Below, one piece after another: positions 3,324 through 40,601 of a stretch of DNA of 45,673 bases. The notes beneath the pieces are model-generated. The model saw only the letters and a program-made list of their open reading frames with translations, was not told the origin of the DNA and ran no database searches. A program made the position numbers and the translations under genes. The first letter of the stretch is position 1. Each line of letters starts with the position of its first letter. Location: assembly GCA_947165825.1 (NCBI GenBank), contig CAMVBX010000001.1, positions 1-45,673 on the forward strand. The letters run 5' to 3'. This DNA comes from an uncultured Clostridia bacterium. Its GTDB lineage: Bacteria; Bacillota; Clostridia; Oscillospirales; Oscillospiraceae.

Positions 3324-3352
3324 GTGTCAATGGGGACCGTTCTGATCGACAC
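3324..3352. repeat. REP-like hairpin, left copy
   Basis: gtgtcaatggggaccgttctgatcgacac. The ends gtgtcaat and atcgacac pair with one mismatch. Confidence 0.7.
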
Positions 3353-3354
3353 AC

Positions 3355-4098
3355 CTACGCGCGCTGGATCACGCCGCGGTTGATTCCCGTCAGACGTTCG
3401 AGCTGGCGCACGGAAATCCCCTCCGCCTTCAGCGCACGGAGGGCGGCGTTCCGCTCTTCCCGCTCAAACGTCTGGAGCGCCGTCCCGCTGCTTACCTTCA
3501 GCCGCTTCCGGATGATCGCGGAGGCCCAGCTGTCGTCATGCCTGCGCGGCTCAAACTCCATATACTCCGCGTCATCCTTTTCGCACAGAAATGCCGCGTA
3601 GTCGTCAGCGTCACCGATCAGGTCGTGCAGCAGCGAAGCATCTGCGATGGCTTCCGGATCGTCGTCCCGGCAGCAGCTGCTCCATTCGTAATCAGAAGCC
3701 CTGCAGATCCCCGCCTTTTCCGGGTTGTTCAGGATATATCGATATACAGCGAGAAAATACCCGTCGTCCTCGATCACCTCGCTCTGATACCGATCCTGAA
3801 ACAGATGACCTACCCGCTCGTACTTCCGATAATAATGCCTGGCATAGCATACGCCCAGTTTCTTCGTCAGCAGCGGCGTATGTCCCTTCGGATCATGGAC
3901 CAGCAGGTGAATATGGTTTTCCATCAGGCAGTATGCGCAGACCGTAACCTCGGTTTCCGTGCTGAACCGACGCAGAAGGGAAAGATAGTATACATGATCC
4001 TCCCGATCCTCAAAAAGAACCTGCCTGCCGATCCCGCGAACGATCAGGTGCAGATATCCCGTCGGGCTCAGTTTTCGCGCCGTTCTTGCCATCGTCAT
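3355..4098 (-). CDS. REP-associated / IS200-like Y1 (HUH) transposase with C-terminal HTH
   Basis: YLHLIVRGIGRQVLF, the HUH motif CLMENHIHLLV, and a catalytic Tyr context GHLFQDRYQSEVIEDDGYFLAVYRYILNNP. The C-terminal segment GISVRQLERLTGINRGVIQRA looks like an HTH. Confidence 0.85.
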   Translation of the reverse strand: MTMARTARKLSPTGYLHLIVRGIGRQVLFEDREDHVYYLSLLRRFSTETEVTVCAYCLMENHIHLLVHDPKGHTPLLTKKLGVCYARHYYRKYERVGHLFQDRYQSEVIEDDGYFLAVYRYILNNPEKAGICRASDYEWSSCCRDDDPEAIADASLLHDLIGDADDYAAFLCEKDDAEYMEFEPRRHDDSWASAIIRKRLKVSSGTALQTFEREERNAALRALKAEGISVRQLERLTGINRGVIQRA

Positions 4099-4139
4099 CC
4101 CTCCCTATGCTGTTTTAAGGAGACCAGACGGGCAGGAAT

Positions 4140-4168
4140 GTGTCAATTAGAACCGTCCCCATTGACAC
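4140..4168. repeat. REP-like hairpin, right copy
   Basis: gtgtcaattagaaccgtccccattgacac, with a perfect 8-bp stem gtgtcaat/attgacac. Confidence 0.7.
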
Positions 4169-4286
4169 AAGGACGGGAGCTGCGGATTGCCACAACCGGT
4201 GACATCGGTCACCGGTTTCGCAATGACCGTTTCGATGGTTTGGTACTTTGTCTACAGTCTGAGCGGTTTTTGAAAAAAACCGTCTT

Positions 4287-17163: not shown

Positions 17164-17379
17164 ATGCCCACCTCCCGTTGAATCTGTTCGCATGCCGTAA
17201 GTATAGCACAGATGCGGAAAATCCGCATCCGGTTCTTTCCCGGCTGCGGGATGCGGAAAGGACTGCACCGGTATCCCCCGGACCTTGCGGCGAGCTGCAT
17301 TTTATGGTATCTTTGCAGACGGAAACCGGCTGCAGATCCGGGGAAGACCGGTACGGGAGAGGGGGGCTCGGCGTTGGCG

Positions 17380-18633
17380 ATGGATATCGGCGTTCTGGCT
17401 GCGCTGGCGCCGCTGCTGTTCCTGCTCCTGGGCCTGGGGTTCACGGTGGTGATCGACCCGTATATCCGGCGGGAGAACCGGCGGATCATGCTGGTCATCG
17501 TCCTGCTGTGCCTCACGCTGATCGCGCAGAATCTGGTGGAAAACAGCCTCGCCTCGGGACCCGCGCGGGTGACGGGAAGAACGCTGGTATCCGTTTACGG
17601 TTATATTGTGCGCCCGGTTTTCCTGATCCTGTTCCTGTATATCGTGCATCCGGAAGGGAAGCACTGGCTTTGGTGGGGGCTTGCGGCCGGGAATGCGGCT
17701 GTCTGCCTCACGGCGCTGTTTTCCGATATCTGCTTCATGATCGGCAGCGACAACCACTATCACCCCGGGCCTCTGGCGAACACGACCCTCTATATCAGCG
17801 CAGTTCTGTTGGCCAATCTTCTGGTTCAGACGCTGCGGAGCCGCCGGGAAGCCGGAAAGCAGGAAAAATGGATCCCGGTCTTCATCGCGGCCATGATCGT
17901 GCTCTCCGTCCTGATGGACAGCCGGGTACAGGCGGCGGCGGACCAGCCTGTCGCTTTCCTGACCATCGCCATCGTGGTGGGCAGCGTATTCTATTACCTC
18001 TGGCTCCATCTGCAGTTTGTCCGGGGGCATGAGCAGGACCTGAGGGCGGCTCAGCGCATCACGATCATGGCATCCCAGATCCGGCCGCATTTTCTCTACA
18101 ACACCATCGCCACGATCAGAGCCCTGTGCAGGCGCGATCCGGAAAAGGCGGAGAAGGTAGCGGAGGATTTCGGCCGGTACCTGCGGCAGAACATGGATTC
18201 TCTGGAGAGCGCAGGGCTGATCCCCTTTGAAAAAGAGCTGGAGCACACGCGCTGCTATGCCGATATTGAAATGGTGCGGTTCGAGAACATCCGCGTGGAG
18301 TACGATATCGGGGACCGGGTATTTACATTGCCCCCCCTGACAGTGCAGCCTATGGTGGAGAACGCGATTCGCCATGGCGTCCGGATCCGGAAGGAAGGCG
18401 TGGTCCGGGTGAGTTCCCGCTTCACGGACGGCTGCCATGAGATCCGGATACAGGATAACGGGATCGGATTTGACGTAAACGCCATAGAGGCAGCCGGGGG
18501 CCCCCATATCGGCATCCGCAACGTGCGGGAGCGGATCGAAACGCAGTGCGGCGGTTCGCTCCTCCTGGAAAGCCGGATGGGAGAAGGGACAACGGTCATC
18601 ATCCGGATCCCCGGGCGGAGGGAAAAAGCATGA
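17380..18633 (+). CDS. Sensor histidine kinase, LytS/YehU-type (His_kinase + HATPase_c) with polytopic N-terminal sensor
   Basis: About six N-terminal TM helices, the phospho-acceptor motif IRPHFLYNTIATI and the ATPase motif VQPMVENAIRHGV. The start is uncertain; the ATG at 17380 was chosen and its RBS is weak. Confidence 0.8.
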   Translation: MDIGVLAALAPLLFLLLGLGFTVVIDPYIRRENRRIMLVIVLLCLTLIAQNLVENSLASGPARVTGRTLVSVYGYIVRPVFLILFLYIVHPEGKHWLWWGLAAGNAAVCLTALFSDICFMIGSDNHYHPGPLANTTLYISAVLLANLLVQTLRSRREAGKQEKWIPVFIAAMIVLSVLMDSRVQAAADQPVAFLTIAIVVGSVFYYLWLHLQFVRGHEQDLRAAQRITIMASQIRPHFLYNTIATIRALCRRDPEKAEKVAEDFGRYLRQNMDSLESAGLIPFEKELEHTRCYADIEMVRFENIRVEYDIGDRVFTLPPLTVQPMVENAIRHGVRIRKEGVVRVSSRFTDGCHEIRIQDNGIGFDVNAIEAAGGPHIGIRNVRERIETQCGGSLLLESRMGEGTTVIIRIPGRREKA

Positions 18634-19442
18634 AAGTGATCTGCGTTGACGATGAGCGTCTCCTGATGGAGGACACCCTGGCCATGTGTCTCTCCCTGCC
18701 GGAGATCGACGAGGCGAAGGGATTTGTCTGGGCTCGGGACGCGCTGGAATGGACAGAACATAACCCGGTGGATCTGGCGCTTCTGGATATCGACATGCCG
18801 GATATGAACGGGATCATGCTGGCGGCGGAGATTAAGAACCGATCCCCCGGGACAGCGATTATTTTCCTCACCGGCTATGCCCAGTATGCGGTGGACGCGT
18901 TTGCCGTGCGGGCTTCCGGCTATTTGCTGAAGCCGGTCACCCGGGAGATGCTGGCCGCAGATGTGGCCTATGCGCTCTCCGGGAGGCGGAAGACGGCGGC
19001 GGTCCATGTGTTGGTCAGGACCTTCGGCCTGTTTGACGTATTTCTGGACGGGGCTCCGGTGAGATTCAAGATGGCGAAATGCAAGGAGCTTCTCGCCTAC
19101 CTGGTGGATCGGCAGGGAAGCAGCGTATCCCGGGCCGAGCTCTCCGCCGCCCTGTGGGAGGACCGCCCCTATGACCGGAAGCAGCAGAAGCAGCTGGATG
19201 TGTACATCCGCTCCCTGCGGGAAACGCTGGCGGATAACGGAATTGAGAACATTCTGGAGATGCAGAGGGGGACCCTGCGGATTATCCCGGAAACCTTTGA
19301 CTGTGACGCGTACCGTTTCTTTTCGGGGGACAGCGACGCGGTCAACGCCTATCGGGGGGAATACATGAGCGCCTATCCCTGGGCGAGCATCACGGAAGGC
19401 GCGATGTTCTGGCAGCAATGGGGGGAAGGCGGGAAGGATTGA
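18630..19442 (+). CDS. Response regulator: REC + SARP-type winged helix + truncated BTAD (COG3947-like)
   Basis: Its ATGA overlaps the kinase stop. REC motifs are LLDIDMPDMNG and YLLKP. The output domain LFDVFLDGAPVRF..AKCKELLAYLVDRQGSSVSRAELSAALWEDRP...LDVYIRSLRETL...LRIIPETFDCDAYRF matches the SARP/OmpR-family wHTH followed by the beginning of a BTAD. Confidence 0.85.
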   Translation: MKVICVDDERLLMEDTLAMCLSLPEIDEAKGFVWARDALEWTEHNPVDLALLDIDMPDMNGIMLAAEIKNRSPGTAIIFLTGYAQYAVDAFAVRASGYLLKPVTREMLAADVAYALSGRRKTAAVHVLVRTFGLFDVFLDGAPVRFKMAKCKELLAYLVDRQGSSVSRAELSAALWEDRPYDRKQQKQLDVYIRSLRETLADNGIENILEMQRGTLRIIPETFDCDAYRFFSGDSDAVNAYRGEYMSAYPWASITEGAMFWQQWGEGGKD

Positions 19443-19462
19443 CCCCACCGCCCCGGATGAAG

Positions 19463-19505
19463 AAGCCGTTTTTTTCCAAGAAACTGGAAGGAACGGCTTT
19501 TCTAT
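19463..19505 (+). terminator. Weak terminator candidate after the response regulator
   Basis: Stem aagccgtt / aacggctt around a long, partly paired loop, followed by a T-rich tctatt. Confidence 0.35.
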
Positions 19506-19536
19506 TGGACATTTATTGGACACGGACGGATAGACT
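19505..19536 (+). promoter_or_regulatory. Direct-repeat (TTGGACA-N4-TTGGACA) activator-type promoter, copy 1
   Basis: ttggaca ttta ttggaca cggacgga tagact. Two identical heptamers have 11-nt periodicity. The 3' heptamer lies 8 nt from a TAnnCT -10-like hexamer. The first 28 nt are identical to 40166-40193. Confidence 0.55.
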
Positions 19537-19555
19537 GTTTTCGGAAAGAGAATCG

Positions 19556-19782
19556 GACCCATGTCCCGTTCCGGGACATGGGCCAGACTGTAGACAAACC
19601 CGAAAATGGAACGAAAACGGGAAGGAAGATAGCGCGAAAGAAACCCAGGAGGGGTGTCTTTCGCGTTCAATCAGAAGTTTTTCGAACAATTTCTACCGTA
19701 TTTCCTGTTCGAAAAACTTGCTTCAGCGGGGCGACAAGACTTTGTCGACACGCTGACCCATGTCCCGTTCCGGGACATGGGC
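19556..19782. repeat. 227-bp hairpin-rich element bounded by ~43-nt imperfect inverted repeats (MITE/REP-cluster-like or structured 5' leader)
   Basis: The identical 28-nt gacccatgtcccgttccgggacatgggc occurs at 19556-19583 and 19755-19782. Each copy has an 11-bp stem and a 3-nt loop. The adjacent flanks cagactgtagacaaa (19584-19598) and actttgtcgacacgctga (19739-19756) are inverted relative to each other. Internal hairpins lie at 19633-19665 (9 bp) and 19678-19716 (11 bp). Confidence 0.6.
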
Positions 19783-19821
19783 AGCCGTCGGACGATCCGC
19801 CGCGGGAAAAGGAGTACGGCC

Positions 19822-20109
19822 ATGTCGGAACCTGGAAGCATATATGAACTGAGCGCCGATCAGCTGGAAGAGGTCAGCGGCGGAAGCCCGCAGCTCGGCA
19901 TCTACCGTCCCGGTTTCCGGTTCAGGGAAGAATCCCTGCGGTATTTTCGCCAGTGCGTCGGGGAGGAGACCTATGTCCGAGCCATGTCCAGCGAGGCGGG
20001 GCGGCGGCATCATTACGTCGTGGCCAGAGCGTTTCTGAGCCAGGCGGACTGGGAGAAATTCGTCTGGATCGAGCAGTTTGGCTCGCTGGACGGCTTTCCG
20101 GGCTGCTGA
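19822..20109 (+). CDS. Double-glycine-leader precursor protein (21-aa leader, 74-aa core)
   Basis: An AAGGAG RBS lies 7 nt before the ATG. The leader MSEPGSIYELSADQLEEVSGG fits the LSxxELxxIxGG consensus (L-12, L-7, V-4, GG). The core has two Cys, one of them the C-terminal residue. The gene lies immediately upstream of a C39-ABC exporter. Confidence 0.75.
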   Translation: MSEPGSIYELSADQLEEVSGGSPQLGIYRPGFRFREESLRYFRQCVGEETYVRAMSSEAGRRHHYVVARAFLSQADWEKFVWIEQFGSLDGFPGC

Positions 20110-20121
20110 GGAGAGAAAGAG

Positions 20122-20541
20122 ATGGAAGAACAGAAAACCATATTCCGAAAAAAAGCGCTGGAGCGGATCTCCTCTCCGGATCAGCTGACGGATTATCTCT
20201 GCGTGACGAACCCCGGGATCTGGGTGATCCTTGCCGCGATCCTTGCGCTCCTGGTCGGCCTCCTTGCCTGGGGGACCATCGGAACGCTGGAAACCAGCGC
20301 CAGGGTCAAGGTGATCATCGCGGATCATACGGCGGAGGTCGTTCCCCTGGGCAGCGAGCGCCTGGCGGAGGGAATGACGCTGTGTGTCGCGTCCCAGGAG
20401 ACCGTCATCGCCTCCACCGGCAGGGACGATTTCGGCAGGATCTTCGGCGTTGCGGAGCTCCCCCTGCCGGACGGCGTTTATGACGGGACCGTTGTGGTGG
20501 AACAAACGCGGCCCATCGACTTCCTGCTGGAAAGCCGGTAG
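20122..20541 (+). CDS. Short HlyD-like accessory protein of NHLM-type bacteriocin exporters
   Basis: The N-terminus FRKKALERISSPDQLTDYL followed by one TM helix resembles the start of NHLM-system HlyD proteins (TIGR03794, from memory). The protein is only 139 aa. Confidence 0.65.
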   Translation: MEEQKTIFRKKALERISSPDQLTDYLCVTNPGIWVILAAILALLVGLLAWGTIGTLETSARVKVIIADHTAEVVPLGSERLAEGMTLCVASQETVIASTGRDDFGRIFGVAELPLPDGVYDGTVVVEQTRPIDFLLESR

Positions 20542-40165: not shown

Positions 40166-40205
40166 TTGGACATTTATTGGACACGGACGGATATTCTGCT
40201 ATACT
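40166..40205 (+). promoter_or_regulatory. Direct-repeat (TTGGACA-N4-TTGGACA) promoter, copy 2
   Basis: The 28 nt at 40166-40193 are identical to 19505-19532. The 3' heptamer lies 8 nt from tattct (40192-40197). Read as a sigma-70 promoter instead, TTGGAC (40177-40182), a 17-nt spacer and TATACT (40200-40205) also fit. It lies about 100 nt upstream of the STAS gene. Confidence 0.6.
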
Positions 40206-40304: not shown

Positions 40305-40601
40305 ATGACCATCAACAAAACCGGAAGCGGAAGCAAGCTGACCCTGGCCTTGGCGGGCCGTCTGGATACCGTTACCGCGCCAGAGCTGGAAAAGGAACTG
40401 CAGGATTCCCTGGAGGGGATCGATACGCTCATTTTCGATTTCTCCGGTCTGGAGTACGTCTCCTCCGCCGGGCTGCGTGTGCTGCTTTCGGCGCAGAAGA
40501 CCATGAACAAGCAGGGAGAAATGAAGCTTACTCATGTGAACGAAAGCATCATGGAAATTTTTGAGGTCACCGGCTTTACGGATATCCTGACCTTCGAATA
40601 A
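40305..40601 (+). CDS. STAS domain anti-sigma-factor antagonist (SpoIIAA/RsbV-like)
   Basis: 98 aa after an AAGGAGG RBS. The conserved phospho-Ser context FSGLEYVSSAGLRVLL is present, and the C-terminal MEIFEVTGF segment is typical of the family. Confidence 0.9.
   Translation: MTINKTGSGSKLTLALAGRLDTVTAPELEKELQDSLEGIDTLIFDFSGLEYVSSAGLRVLLSAQKTMNKQGEMKLTHVNESIMEIFEVTGFTDILTFE

Follow-up and report, generated by a model that had tools for sequence, protein, structure and literature searches.

IS1397 and ISKpn1, insertion sequences (IS) of the IS3 family, insert into repetitive extragenic palindromes (REPs), and class C group II introns insert after terminator stem-loops. IS1272 and TnSha1, two elements of the IS1182 family in staphylococci, target stem-loops by structure and without sequence specificity, but they delete or replace the hairpin (PMC5678879, PMC4923244). 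[quoted passage not shown] The DNA analysed here, referred to as the window, is a stretch of 45,673 nt from an uncultured bacterium of the Clostridia (Oscillospirales; Oscillospiraceae; GenBank assembly GCA_947165825.1, contig CAMVBX010000001.1, positions 1 to 45,673 of the forward strand). In the leader of a peptide operon in this window, a 171-nt non-coding repeat, designated element I, lies between two identical copies of a stem-loop, H. This arrangement is probably the product of a single transposition-type event, in which the MITE-like repeat inserted at the foot of the stem-loop and the whole stem-loop was duplicated.

The two stem-loops are exact copies of the 28-mer GACCCATGTCCCGTTCCGGGACATGGGC, with an 11-bp stem and a TTC loop, and occupy positions 19556..19583 (H1) and 19755..19782 (H2) of the forward strand at a spacing of 199 nt, just where the original prediction, made from the letters of the window alone, had placed a perfect 28-nt hairpin and its repeat. 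With 3 mismatches permitted, there is no third copy elsewhere in the window, and 100 shuffles gave zero matches. Both loops read TTC, so that H1 and H2 are direct, not inverted, repeats, and the duplication measures 26–28 bp if the ambiguity of the terminal bases is counted. An inverted repeat with 41-nt arms and 83% complementarity (19558–19598 vs. 19741–19781) exists as well. It had been taken for a pair of imperfect terminal inverted repeats (TIRs) of about 43 nt, but it is a composite of the self-complementary native hairpin and the genuine TIR of element I, which is about 15 nt long and in which CAGACTGTAGACAAA pairs with TTTGTCGACACGCTG at 12/15 positions.

Judged by comparison with orthologous sequences, the 199 bp are an insertion. 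Sister-species loci whose peptides are 91% (L025–L030) and 83% (L031–L034) identical have the same gene order as the window, and their spacers between the regulator and the peptide gene measure 186 and 182 nt, compared with 379 nt in the window; they are about 195 bp shorter, which matches the prediction from removing 199 bp. Conserved in the alignment are the terminator and the box promoter with its −10 region, then the stretch that runs up to …AATCGGA and the one from …CGGAC…GCCGC(G/A)GGAAAAGGAG up to the ATG, and all that lies between these two stretches is missing in the orthologues. The proposed placement in a 5′ untranslated region (UTR) gains support from the box, the −10 region and the AGGAG/ATG that are kept in these loci. 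At the equivalent site, each orthologue (L025, L031) has a single GC-rich hairpin, which in L025 reads CCAACCCCCG-GGA-CGGGGGCTGG (10-bp stem, 3-nt loop) and has the outer and inner stem bases in common with H, and the sequence 3′ of H2 (CAGCCGTCGGAC...GCCGCGGGAAAAGGAG) aligns to the post-hairpin leader of the orthologues. In silico, removal of 199 bp with one H kept leaves 152 nt, compared with 158 and 154 nt in the orthologues, at 71% identity to L025; removal of all 227 bp leaves 124 nt at 60% identity.

The single hairpin of the orthologues and the fit of the deletion thus mark H as native leader sequence that is now doubled, and the 171 nt in between as the foreign part. H1 and H2 are the left and right copies of this native stem-loop, target DNA outside the mobile element, and together they form a 28-bp target duplication. 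Among the three explanations offered by the original prediction for its 227-bp element, a mobile insertion of the MITE or REP type is therefore the favoured one, but the unit had been delimited wrongly, as only the 171-nt interior is the mobile part. A distant locus, L035, has the same box with a leader of about 25 nt and no hairpin. The insertion is present in every contig of the window's species that was recovered, from several studies, so that it is common or fixed, and it is probably tolerated as near-neutral. The source names of contigs with this locus, STEW18 and XIEF21, presumably point to ruminant-gut studies.

H itself is not dispersed. In 185,579 species genomes (596 Gb, one genome per species), its 23-nt core and hairpin pattern match off-locus only chance terminators, in Delftia and one Streptomyces, and in the metagenomes of the Joint Genome Institute (JGI), where the scan included a sample with 14-kb contigs of the organism, the hairpin core is found in only two contigs, both from this locus. 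These scans rule out H as a dispersed REP. A copy count by the 28-mer or the 227 bp had been proposed, but the 28-mer would mislead, given that its core has only chance terminator matches off-locus; the interior is the informative part and is multi-copy.

Element I occupies positions 19584..19754 of the forward strand (match of the family hidden Markov model, HMM, at 19585–19755, E = 3e-47). It begins with the 5′ terminal repeat CAGACTGTAGACAAA (19584–19598), has a conserved purine-rich 5′ module that reaches to about 19630, and ends with the 3′ terminal repeat at 19740–19754. Its hairpins are h3 (19633–19665; arms 19633–19646/19652–19665, 14 nt, 93%), h4 (19675–19719; arms 19675–19688/19706–19719, 14 nt, 100%) and the terminal h5 (19724–19755), which closes the interior. 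The first two are the interior hairpins named by the original prediction, while h5 was not on its list; all the sequence features in its description were confirmed at the coordinates that it gave. The termini are conserved family-wide, with (C/T)|AG(A/G)CTGT(A/C)GA…AAA at the 5′ end and TTT…TCGACACGCT|GA (CACGCT|GA) at the 3′ end, and in the window they fall exactly at the inner edges of H1 and H2.

Copies of this interior are found in unrelated surroundings. In Vescimonas fastidiosa MM35, an intergenic stretch without annotation is 68–71% identical to it, with matches at several places per record, and local profile searches give at least six V. fastidiosa copies in 33 kb: a full copy upstream of recJ (L039, 2974–3135) and five full or partial ones within 27 kb of L040. 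All of them lie between genes, in either orientation; a further 150 kb of V. fastidiosa (L041, L042, L046) holds no copies. The IMG/VR contig L043 has two copies, a full one that separates a promoter from a nitroreductase-like gene and a partial one, and two more IMG/VR contigs (L054, L055) also hold copies, while L044 and L045 carry a variant of about 335 nt. Scans of viral contigs with the 5′ module and the gut-type h3 yielded no new copies. Additional copies were sought through spurious open reading frames (ORFs), by joining the six reading frames of the interior end to end and comparing them with a protein collection; six “proteins” that read through other copies led to contigs including L047 to L052. 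The frame and strand of the ORFs called across element I vary between copies, and the ORFs extend into unrelated flanks, from which it follows that the element is non-coding.

Some of these copies are in contigs attributed to the window's own species. L047 has the window's sensor, regulator, promoter, H1 and element I at 99.5% identity and then a different right flank, with a canonical terminator and a blaR1/blaI-like pair, and in L048 element I is 100% identical over 139 nt and then meets yet another hairpin. Contigs attributed to this species thus give at least three further right flanks on copies that are 98–100% identical (L047 twice, L048). L049–L052 are rumen-type contigs with diverged copies from other organisms, of which that in L049 is 87.6% identical to the window's. 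Mosaic copies consist of the 5′ module only, the 5′ module plus h3, the 5′ and 3′ ends, or h3 alone. The genes next to the copies are functionally unrelated (recJ, lipoate ligase, nitroreductase-like, uppS, blaI/blaR1 and the peptide operon). In L047 (3146–5765), the blaI/blaR1-like pair (Penicillinase_R / Peptidase_M56) lies between two copies whose 3′ ends point inward, each abutting a terminator-like hairpin.

A known RNA family was rejected as the identity of the element. Rfam 15 has no gathering-score matches over the whole window; at E < 10, the best match at the locus is P10 (E = 0.47), which is unrelated and sits on H2, and the Vescimonas copy gives nothing. Like a MITE, element I is small (MITEs measure about 50–400 bp) and non-coding, has TIRs, and occurs in multiple dispersed copies per genome. 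It is a dispersed non-coding structured repeat family of the Oscillospiraceae, which is a new family of a known kind, the structured bacterial MITE-like repeats.

The insertion signature is seen in the flanks. In the rumen lineage, 12 of the 13 resolved flanks are perfect stem-loops of 8–14 bp that abut element I, with folding energies of −17 to −31 kcal/mol per 34 nt, each in the lowest 1.5% of background windows, and two of them are canonical terminators with T-runs. Three independent loci have an identical or near-identical stem-loop on either side of the element. In the window, the duplication is 28/28 identical. That in L049 (GAGCCCGCACGCCGAACGGCGTGCGGGCTC and GAACCCGCACGCCGAACGGCGTGCGGGTTC) is 28/30 identical, and its two differences are compensatory, so that both copies are perfect palindromes, while that in L055 (AGGGCCGCCCC-GGAC/GTCC-GGGGCGGCCT) is 23/25 identical in direct register, with reverse-complementary loops. 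Since the flanking hairpins are wholly different between loci in spite of the near-identical element, they are not carried by it. The duplications measure 28, 30 and 25 bp, and their length would be set by the target structure and not be fixed.

Variation in the hairpins themselves was also noted. In strain variants, the foot of the hairpin is lengthened to GA…TC (GGGTC in H2 of L009, GGTC in H1 of L016), and the copies in L049 differ by a compensatory pair, GAG…CTC vs. GAA…TTC; either selection keeps the pairing perfect, or quasi-palindromes are corrected. In L055 (7633–7723), the terminal repeat makes up a perfect 15-bp palindrome (CAGACTGTCGAAAAG-GTC-CTTTTCGACAGTCTG) as the 3′ terminal hairpin of the element, and a solo second 3′ end of the element is found 13 nt past the right-hand host hairpin, followed by a T-run, which suggests that insertions at this site were nested or repeated.

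The way in which the assemblies break agrees with dispersal. Nearly all contigs of the window's species end inside element I, at a depth of k − 1 bases. MEGAHIT k141 contigs start at 19616, 19618 and 19619, so that their first 141-mers end at 19756–19759, and Logan contigs end at 19609, 19609 and 19612, so that, with a k which we take to be 31, their last k-mers start at 19579–19582. This pattern is the signature of a graph branch that occurs where a k-mer falls wholly within a repeat at about 19583–19756, and the contigs break because near-identical copies at other loci share k-mers. The extra shared bases at the breaks match the GA or GACCC that opens the right flanks of other copies. The sole contig that crosses element I (L004) has two private single-nucleotide polymorphisms in it. 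A drop in coverage caused by the hairpins was rejected as the reason for the breaks, since their positions move with k between the k141 and the Logan contigs, as those of a graph branch do.

In the short reads of metagenomes, copies of 98–100% identity fragment and chimerise assemblies, as in L047 and probably in L006 and L007, and this damage affects the quality of metagenome-assembled genomes near quorum-sensing and bacteriocin loci. In contigs from two samples, L006 (3635|3636) and L012 (1–3), an unrelated GC-rich sequence ending in …CTTGT, of which L012 shows just the final two bases (GT), is joined at window position 19782|19783, the 3′ foot of H2. This junction could be an assembly chimera, a second context of the peptide gene, or another hairpin-directed rearrangement.

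The structure of element I appears to be maintained. In an alignment of 10 copies, 98% of the cells of h3, h4 and h5 are paired, and nine pairs have changed on both sides; none of 500 shuffles scored as high, and slid controls gave 35–52% pairing. Covariation is strong in h3 and h4. The pairing between the 5′ and 3′ termini is 82% maintained and has no covariation.

These observations can be assembled into the following course of events. The ancestral leader was about 80 nt long, with one GC-rich stem-loop, H, about 10 nt past the predicted transcription start. Element I, which is non-autonomous and non-coding, entered at the foot of H. The machinery may have recognised the extruded stem-loop, a cruciform, by its structure and not by its sequence, and each strand would have been cut or joined at the equivalent foot of the hairpin, which would produce a staggered break over the entire palindrome, with a stagger equal to the palindrome plus about 3 bp. 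Repair of the gaps would then have duplicated the palindrome. Positions 19300–20000 hold no promoter-like site, the sense strand has no terminator from the box promoter to the ATG, and no U-tract terminator lies on the sense strand of the element; element I should therefore be transcribed within the leader, which would grow to about 280 nt with three hairpins added. Since the insertion doubled its target, H1 remains about 10 nt past the predicted start, and the distance from H2 to the AGGAG/ATG is still the ancestral one. The autoinduction circuit driven by the response regulator is thus probably left largely intact, and any effect on the operon could fall on the stability, decay or processing of the mRNA. 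With direct repeats of 28 bp on either side, the insert could also be lost precisely.

Candidates for the mobilising enzyme are a RayT-like Y1 transposase and DDE enzymes of the IS1182 type. The RayT-like gene, for an HUH transposase of 247 aa, lies in the window at 3358–4098 on the reverse strand (3324..4168 with its flanking hairpins; Pfam Y1_Tnp, E = 1.3e-10). An IS1182-family transposase (DUF772, DDE_Tnp_1, DDE_Tnp_1_6) with its upstream end is found at 1–1445 of L007, joined to the locus at 19582|19583, the 3′ foot of H1. This junction looks like a stem-loop-replacing insertion, with the geometry of IS1272; L007 is also chimeric at its other end (window position 20179).

Several points weigh against this reconstruction. 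No cognate autonomous IS with matching ends is found in the window or in any compared locus: the IS end in L007 (GGCGCGTTGCAAAATAGCG…) is unrelated to the termini of element I, the conserved flanks of the RayT-like gene are a different hairpin, and there is no element I sequence or terminus near the homologue of this gene in L053. Among the contigs recovered from the window's own species, none has an empty-site allele (…AATCG-H-CAGCCGTC…). The flanks, too, are not uniform. The left flank of element I in L007 is the exception in the rumen lineage, with −6.9 kcal/mol and an IS1182-type end, and L050 and L051 carry different hairpins on their two sides, which may be chimeras across the repeat like L047, as element I exceeds the usual k. 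The orientation of the duplication in L055 is ambiguous and would fit either a flip of the loop or an inverted duplication. In the gut lineage, most flanks are not hairpins, and the possible repeats beside the element are short and vary in length (L043, 7 bp; the Vescimonas copy ves1, 4 bp; the copy at 2012 of L040, 3 bp). The covariation in h3 and h4 implies structural selection, for which a purely selfish MITE of the DDE type has no obvious need; such selection would fit an HUH enzyme that recognises hairpins in DNA, or a role as RNA. Lastly, the k of the Logan contigs is an assumed value, and the effects on expression are all inferred.

The RayT-like gene gives rise to a variant of the best explanation, possible although unlikely, according to which element I is REPIN-like and is moved by this enzyme via single-stranded DNA (ssDNA), the hairpins being recognition structures and the …TC|AG… junctions the result of HUH nicking in a cruciform target. 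Besides the presence of the gene in the same window, both junctions read hairpin-TC|AG-element, each on its own strand, and the 3′ end of element I forms a terminal hairpin from an internal copy of the terminal repeat, with a perfect 15-bp stem in L055. About 80 nt from the flanking hairpin of the gene, the reverse strand holds a solo 5′ end of element I at 4247–4261 (within 4215–4285), an exact 15-mer (0 mismatches; chance expectation 0.35 matches with ≤3 mismatches) that abuts the stem-loop GCGGTTTTTGAAAAAAACCGTC and from which about 40 nt of similarity to the 5′ module run leftward (score 30, against at most 25 in shuffles). This solo end either belongs to a truncated copy or terminates a larger unit of which the Y1 gene is a part. 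The hairpin arm TGTGTCGAT and the Vescimonas-type terminal repeat GCTGTCGATAAAG share the core TGTCGAT, a weak resemblance. More than 890 homologues of about 245 aa exist, some of them named RayT by JGI, and most are on contigs of 1–2 kb, as expected for repeat-flanked genes. However, the inverted 30-nt hairpins that flank the gene (3324–3353 and 4139–4168, GTGTCAAT-GGGGACGGTTCT-ATTGACAC; in conserved form GTGTCAAT-N12-ATTGACAC) are not element I sequence and are undetected by the family HMM, and the 77%-identical homologue in L053 has the same hairpins, the downstream one tandemly duplicated, and no element I terminus nearby. The NCBIfam model REP_Tyr_transpos scores the protein at 52 bits, under its cut-off of 80, and transposition by Y1 enzymes (IS200/IS605) is not known to make target duplications. 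A tblastn search of plasmids with the RayT-like protein gave no Vescimonas homologue. A broader form of the idea is equally tentative: mobile DNA guided by structure would form a class of its own, not recognised before, in Clostridia of the gut and the rumen. A RayT-like HUH enzyme would recognise the ssDNA hairpins of element I together with any extruded host stem-loop; by nicking the cruciform at the feet of its two hairpins, it would copy whole terminators or leader hairpins. If this were true, tandem terminators, split 5′ UTRs and excisable cassettes would be created systematically, and neighbouring transcription boundaries could be rewired. A palindrome-associated element of the IS200/IS605 type was tried separately and rejected, with no conserved target tetranucleotide at the left junctions and with duplications present.

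Other readings seek the explanation in RNA or in recombination. Element I could primarily be a functional structured RNA, either small RNA genes or a cis-acting domain, recruited as a regulatory module for stability, processing or protein binding, with mobility secondary. The pairing and double-sided changes described above for the 10 copies, found in 0/500 shuffles, are what such an RNA would have; three copies start a few nucleotides from good −35/−10 promoters (L043, and 17653 and 20002 in L040), the ves1 copy and that at 2012 of L040 end at U-tract terminators, and the copies in L043, at 17653 of L040 and in the window lie between a promoter and a gene. But Rfam is empty even at E < 10, the neighbouring genes are functionally unrelated, and copies occur in both orientations, between convergent genes, right after stop codons and as truncated mosaics. 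The element is also missing from orthologous leaders with the same promoter and ribosome-binding site (RBS), and near-identical copies in contigs attributed to one species speak for recent spread, not old paralogy, so that this reading is clearly improbable. It is extremely improbable that the entire 227-bp stretch arose at this site as an attenuator or riboswitch-type leader specific to the locus. Its position in the 5′ UTR and its exceptionally stable fold (−125.8 kcal/mol for leader RNA 19537–19825 vs. −90.8 ± 5.2 for shuffles; z = −6.8) agree with the idea, and the 3′ strand of h5 can pair alternatively with the 5′ terminus or the internal repeat; yet the 5′/3′ pairing lacks covariation, as noted, there is no terminator or RBS-sequestering element, no Rfam family matches, and the interior is a dispersed repeat that is absent from the orthologous leaders. 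The locus-specific cis-regulatory origin raised by the original prediction is for these reasons, and for the unrelated neighbours of the other copies, not upheld. Very improbable, too, is a phase-variation switch in which programmed recombination at the two hairpins would invert or excise what lies between them. The inverted-repeat architecture between a promoter and the first gene is suggestive of one, the contig breaks are equally compatible with in-place inversion of 19584–19754, and 28-bp direct repeats could support excision. Against this, all 13 contigs that enter the interior show one orientation (13/13), the identical TTC loops make the repeats direct, and the interior lacks a promoter. 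Among the contigs retrieved, none has the empty-site junction, and copies with different flanks, which were in fact recovered, account for the breaks. Other genomes carry this interior between hairpins of unrelated sequence. This last observation also led to the rejection of a CRISPR-like repeat–spacer unit, a pair of Xer/dif-type sites and integrase att sites, which the 28-bp palindromic duplication had prompted.

Regarding its surroundings, the leader follows a two-component system, with a sensor gene (His_kinase/HATPase) at 17212–18633 and an OmpR-type response-regulator gene at 18630–19442. The intrinsic terminator of the latter (19463..19502, forward strand; AGCCGTT...AACGGCT then TTTTC), read from the sequence, has a positional equivalent in L025 and L031. 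It is followed by the box promoter (19503..19537, forward strand), with direct repeats TATTGGACA at 19503–19511 and 19514–19522 and the −10-like GATAGACT, which is nearly invariant among L025, L031 and L035; the adjacent OmpR-type regulator presumably binds to the box. A second box copy, TTGGACATTTATTGGACACGGACGGATA, with 31/33 bases identical, is found at 40166–40198 before a gene that starts near 40306; the leader behind it is about 100 nt long and has no insert. This second copy suggests a small regulon of the two-component system.

On the forward strand, the RBS AGGAG (19810–19814) and the start codon ATG (19822–19824) form a unit, 19810..19824, that is kept in the orthologues, and the start of the peptide gene is accordingly placed at 19822 instead of 19823 as given before. 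This first gene of the operon (19822..20109, forward strand) encodes a 95-aa peptide with a double-glycine leader (…ELSADQLEEVSGG…), of a large family with 118 homologous clusters at 55–91% identity, and is followed in order by genes for a 139-aa protein, an ABC exporter with a C39 peptidase and another ABC transporter. An open frame from a GTG at 19654, inside h3, runs in frame into the peptide gene (19654–20109, 151 aa), and its equivalent has been annotated by a gene caller at another copy (P0122). The small ORF from this GTG was judged spurious, as an AGGAGG abuts the GTG without a spacer and the frame is not kept in other copies.

For the operon, the outlook is mostly reassuring, with the promoter box, one 5′-proximal hairpin and the spacing from hairpin to RBS preserved; the insertion represents no new regulatory principle and probably changes little there. 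The insertion signature is of interest to specialists in mobile DNA, and its practical use lies in annotation and metagenome assembly. Paired identical hairpins around a structured UTR insert can mimic a riboswitch, an inverton or an element with long TIRs, and caution is advised in annotation, as here they are host sequence duplicated by the insertion.

Among the described systems, the pneumococcal BOX/RUP/SPRITE and other structured MITE-like repeats such as Correia, ERIC and bcr1 are, like element I, small, non-coding, intergenic and co-transcribed with neighbouring genes, with stable predicted folds, and lie in 5′ and 3′ UTRs. They have no sequence relationship to it, and element I consists of three local covarying hairpins and not of one long fold-back. 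Its modular mosaic copies resemble the boxA/B/C combinations of BOX. The target duplications of these families are fixed and short (TA or similar) or absent, and none of the families is known to lie between two copies of a host stem-loop. The Oscillospiraceae family is lacking in Rfam and in the 2024 MITE review (PMC10969869).

REP/REPIN sequences and their RAYT genes are comparable in being hairpin-based, non-coding and dispersed near gene ends and terminators, and the window has a RayT-like gene with inverted hairpins and an element I terminus nearby. However, REP units are 20–40 nt long and of high copy number, and RAYT genes are flanked by the same REP family. Element I measures 171 nt, with three different internal hairpins and a non-palindromic 5′ module; the conserved flanks of the gene here are the different hairpin GTGTCAAT…ATTGACAC, and the solo terminus about 80 nt beyond one of them is found in the window only. 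REP/REPIN insertion is not known to duplicate host hairpins. IS1397/ISKpn1 and the class C introns likewise use a DNA stem-loop as a landmark for insertion, but they are autonomous and protein-coding, their duplications are of 3–4 bp or absent, and they are not known to duplicate a whole stem-loop.

A further likeness is to IS1272 and TnSha1, which target a stem-loop or terminator by structure without a consensus and insert at the base of the stem; 12/13 of the resolved rumen flanks of element I are strong stem-loops of unrelated sequence, and a contig of the IS1182 family, L007, joins the same locus at the 3′ foot of H1. For this family, ISfinder reportedly lists direct repeats of 0–60 bp. 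Element I differs in being 171 nt long and non-coding, with termini unlike the IS1182-type end of L007, and a DDE enzyme is a candidate for its mobilisation. Duplication of a whole stem-loop by a MITE is apparently undescribed, as a non-exhaustive search of the literature found no description. The target of IS1272 and TnSha1 is lost without duplication, whereas element I keeps the stem-loop on both sides at three independent loci, with an entire host stem-loop of 25–30 bp as the target-site duplication of a mobile element, an outcome that the IS1272 literature had drawn as hypothetical.

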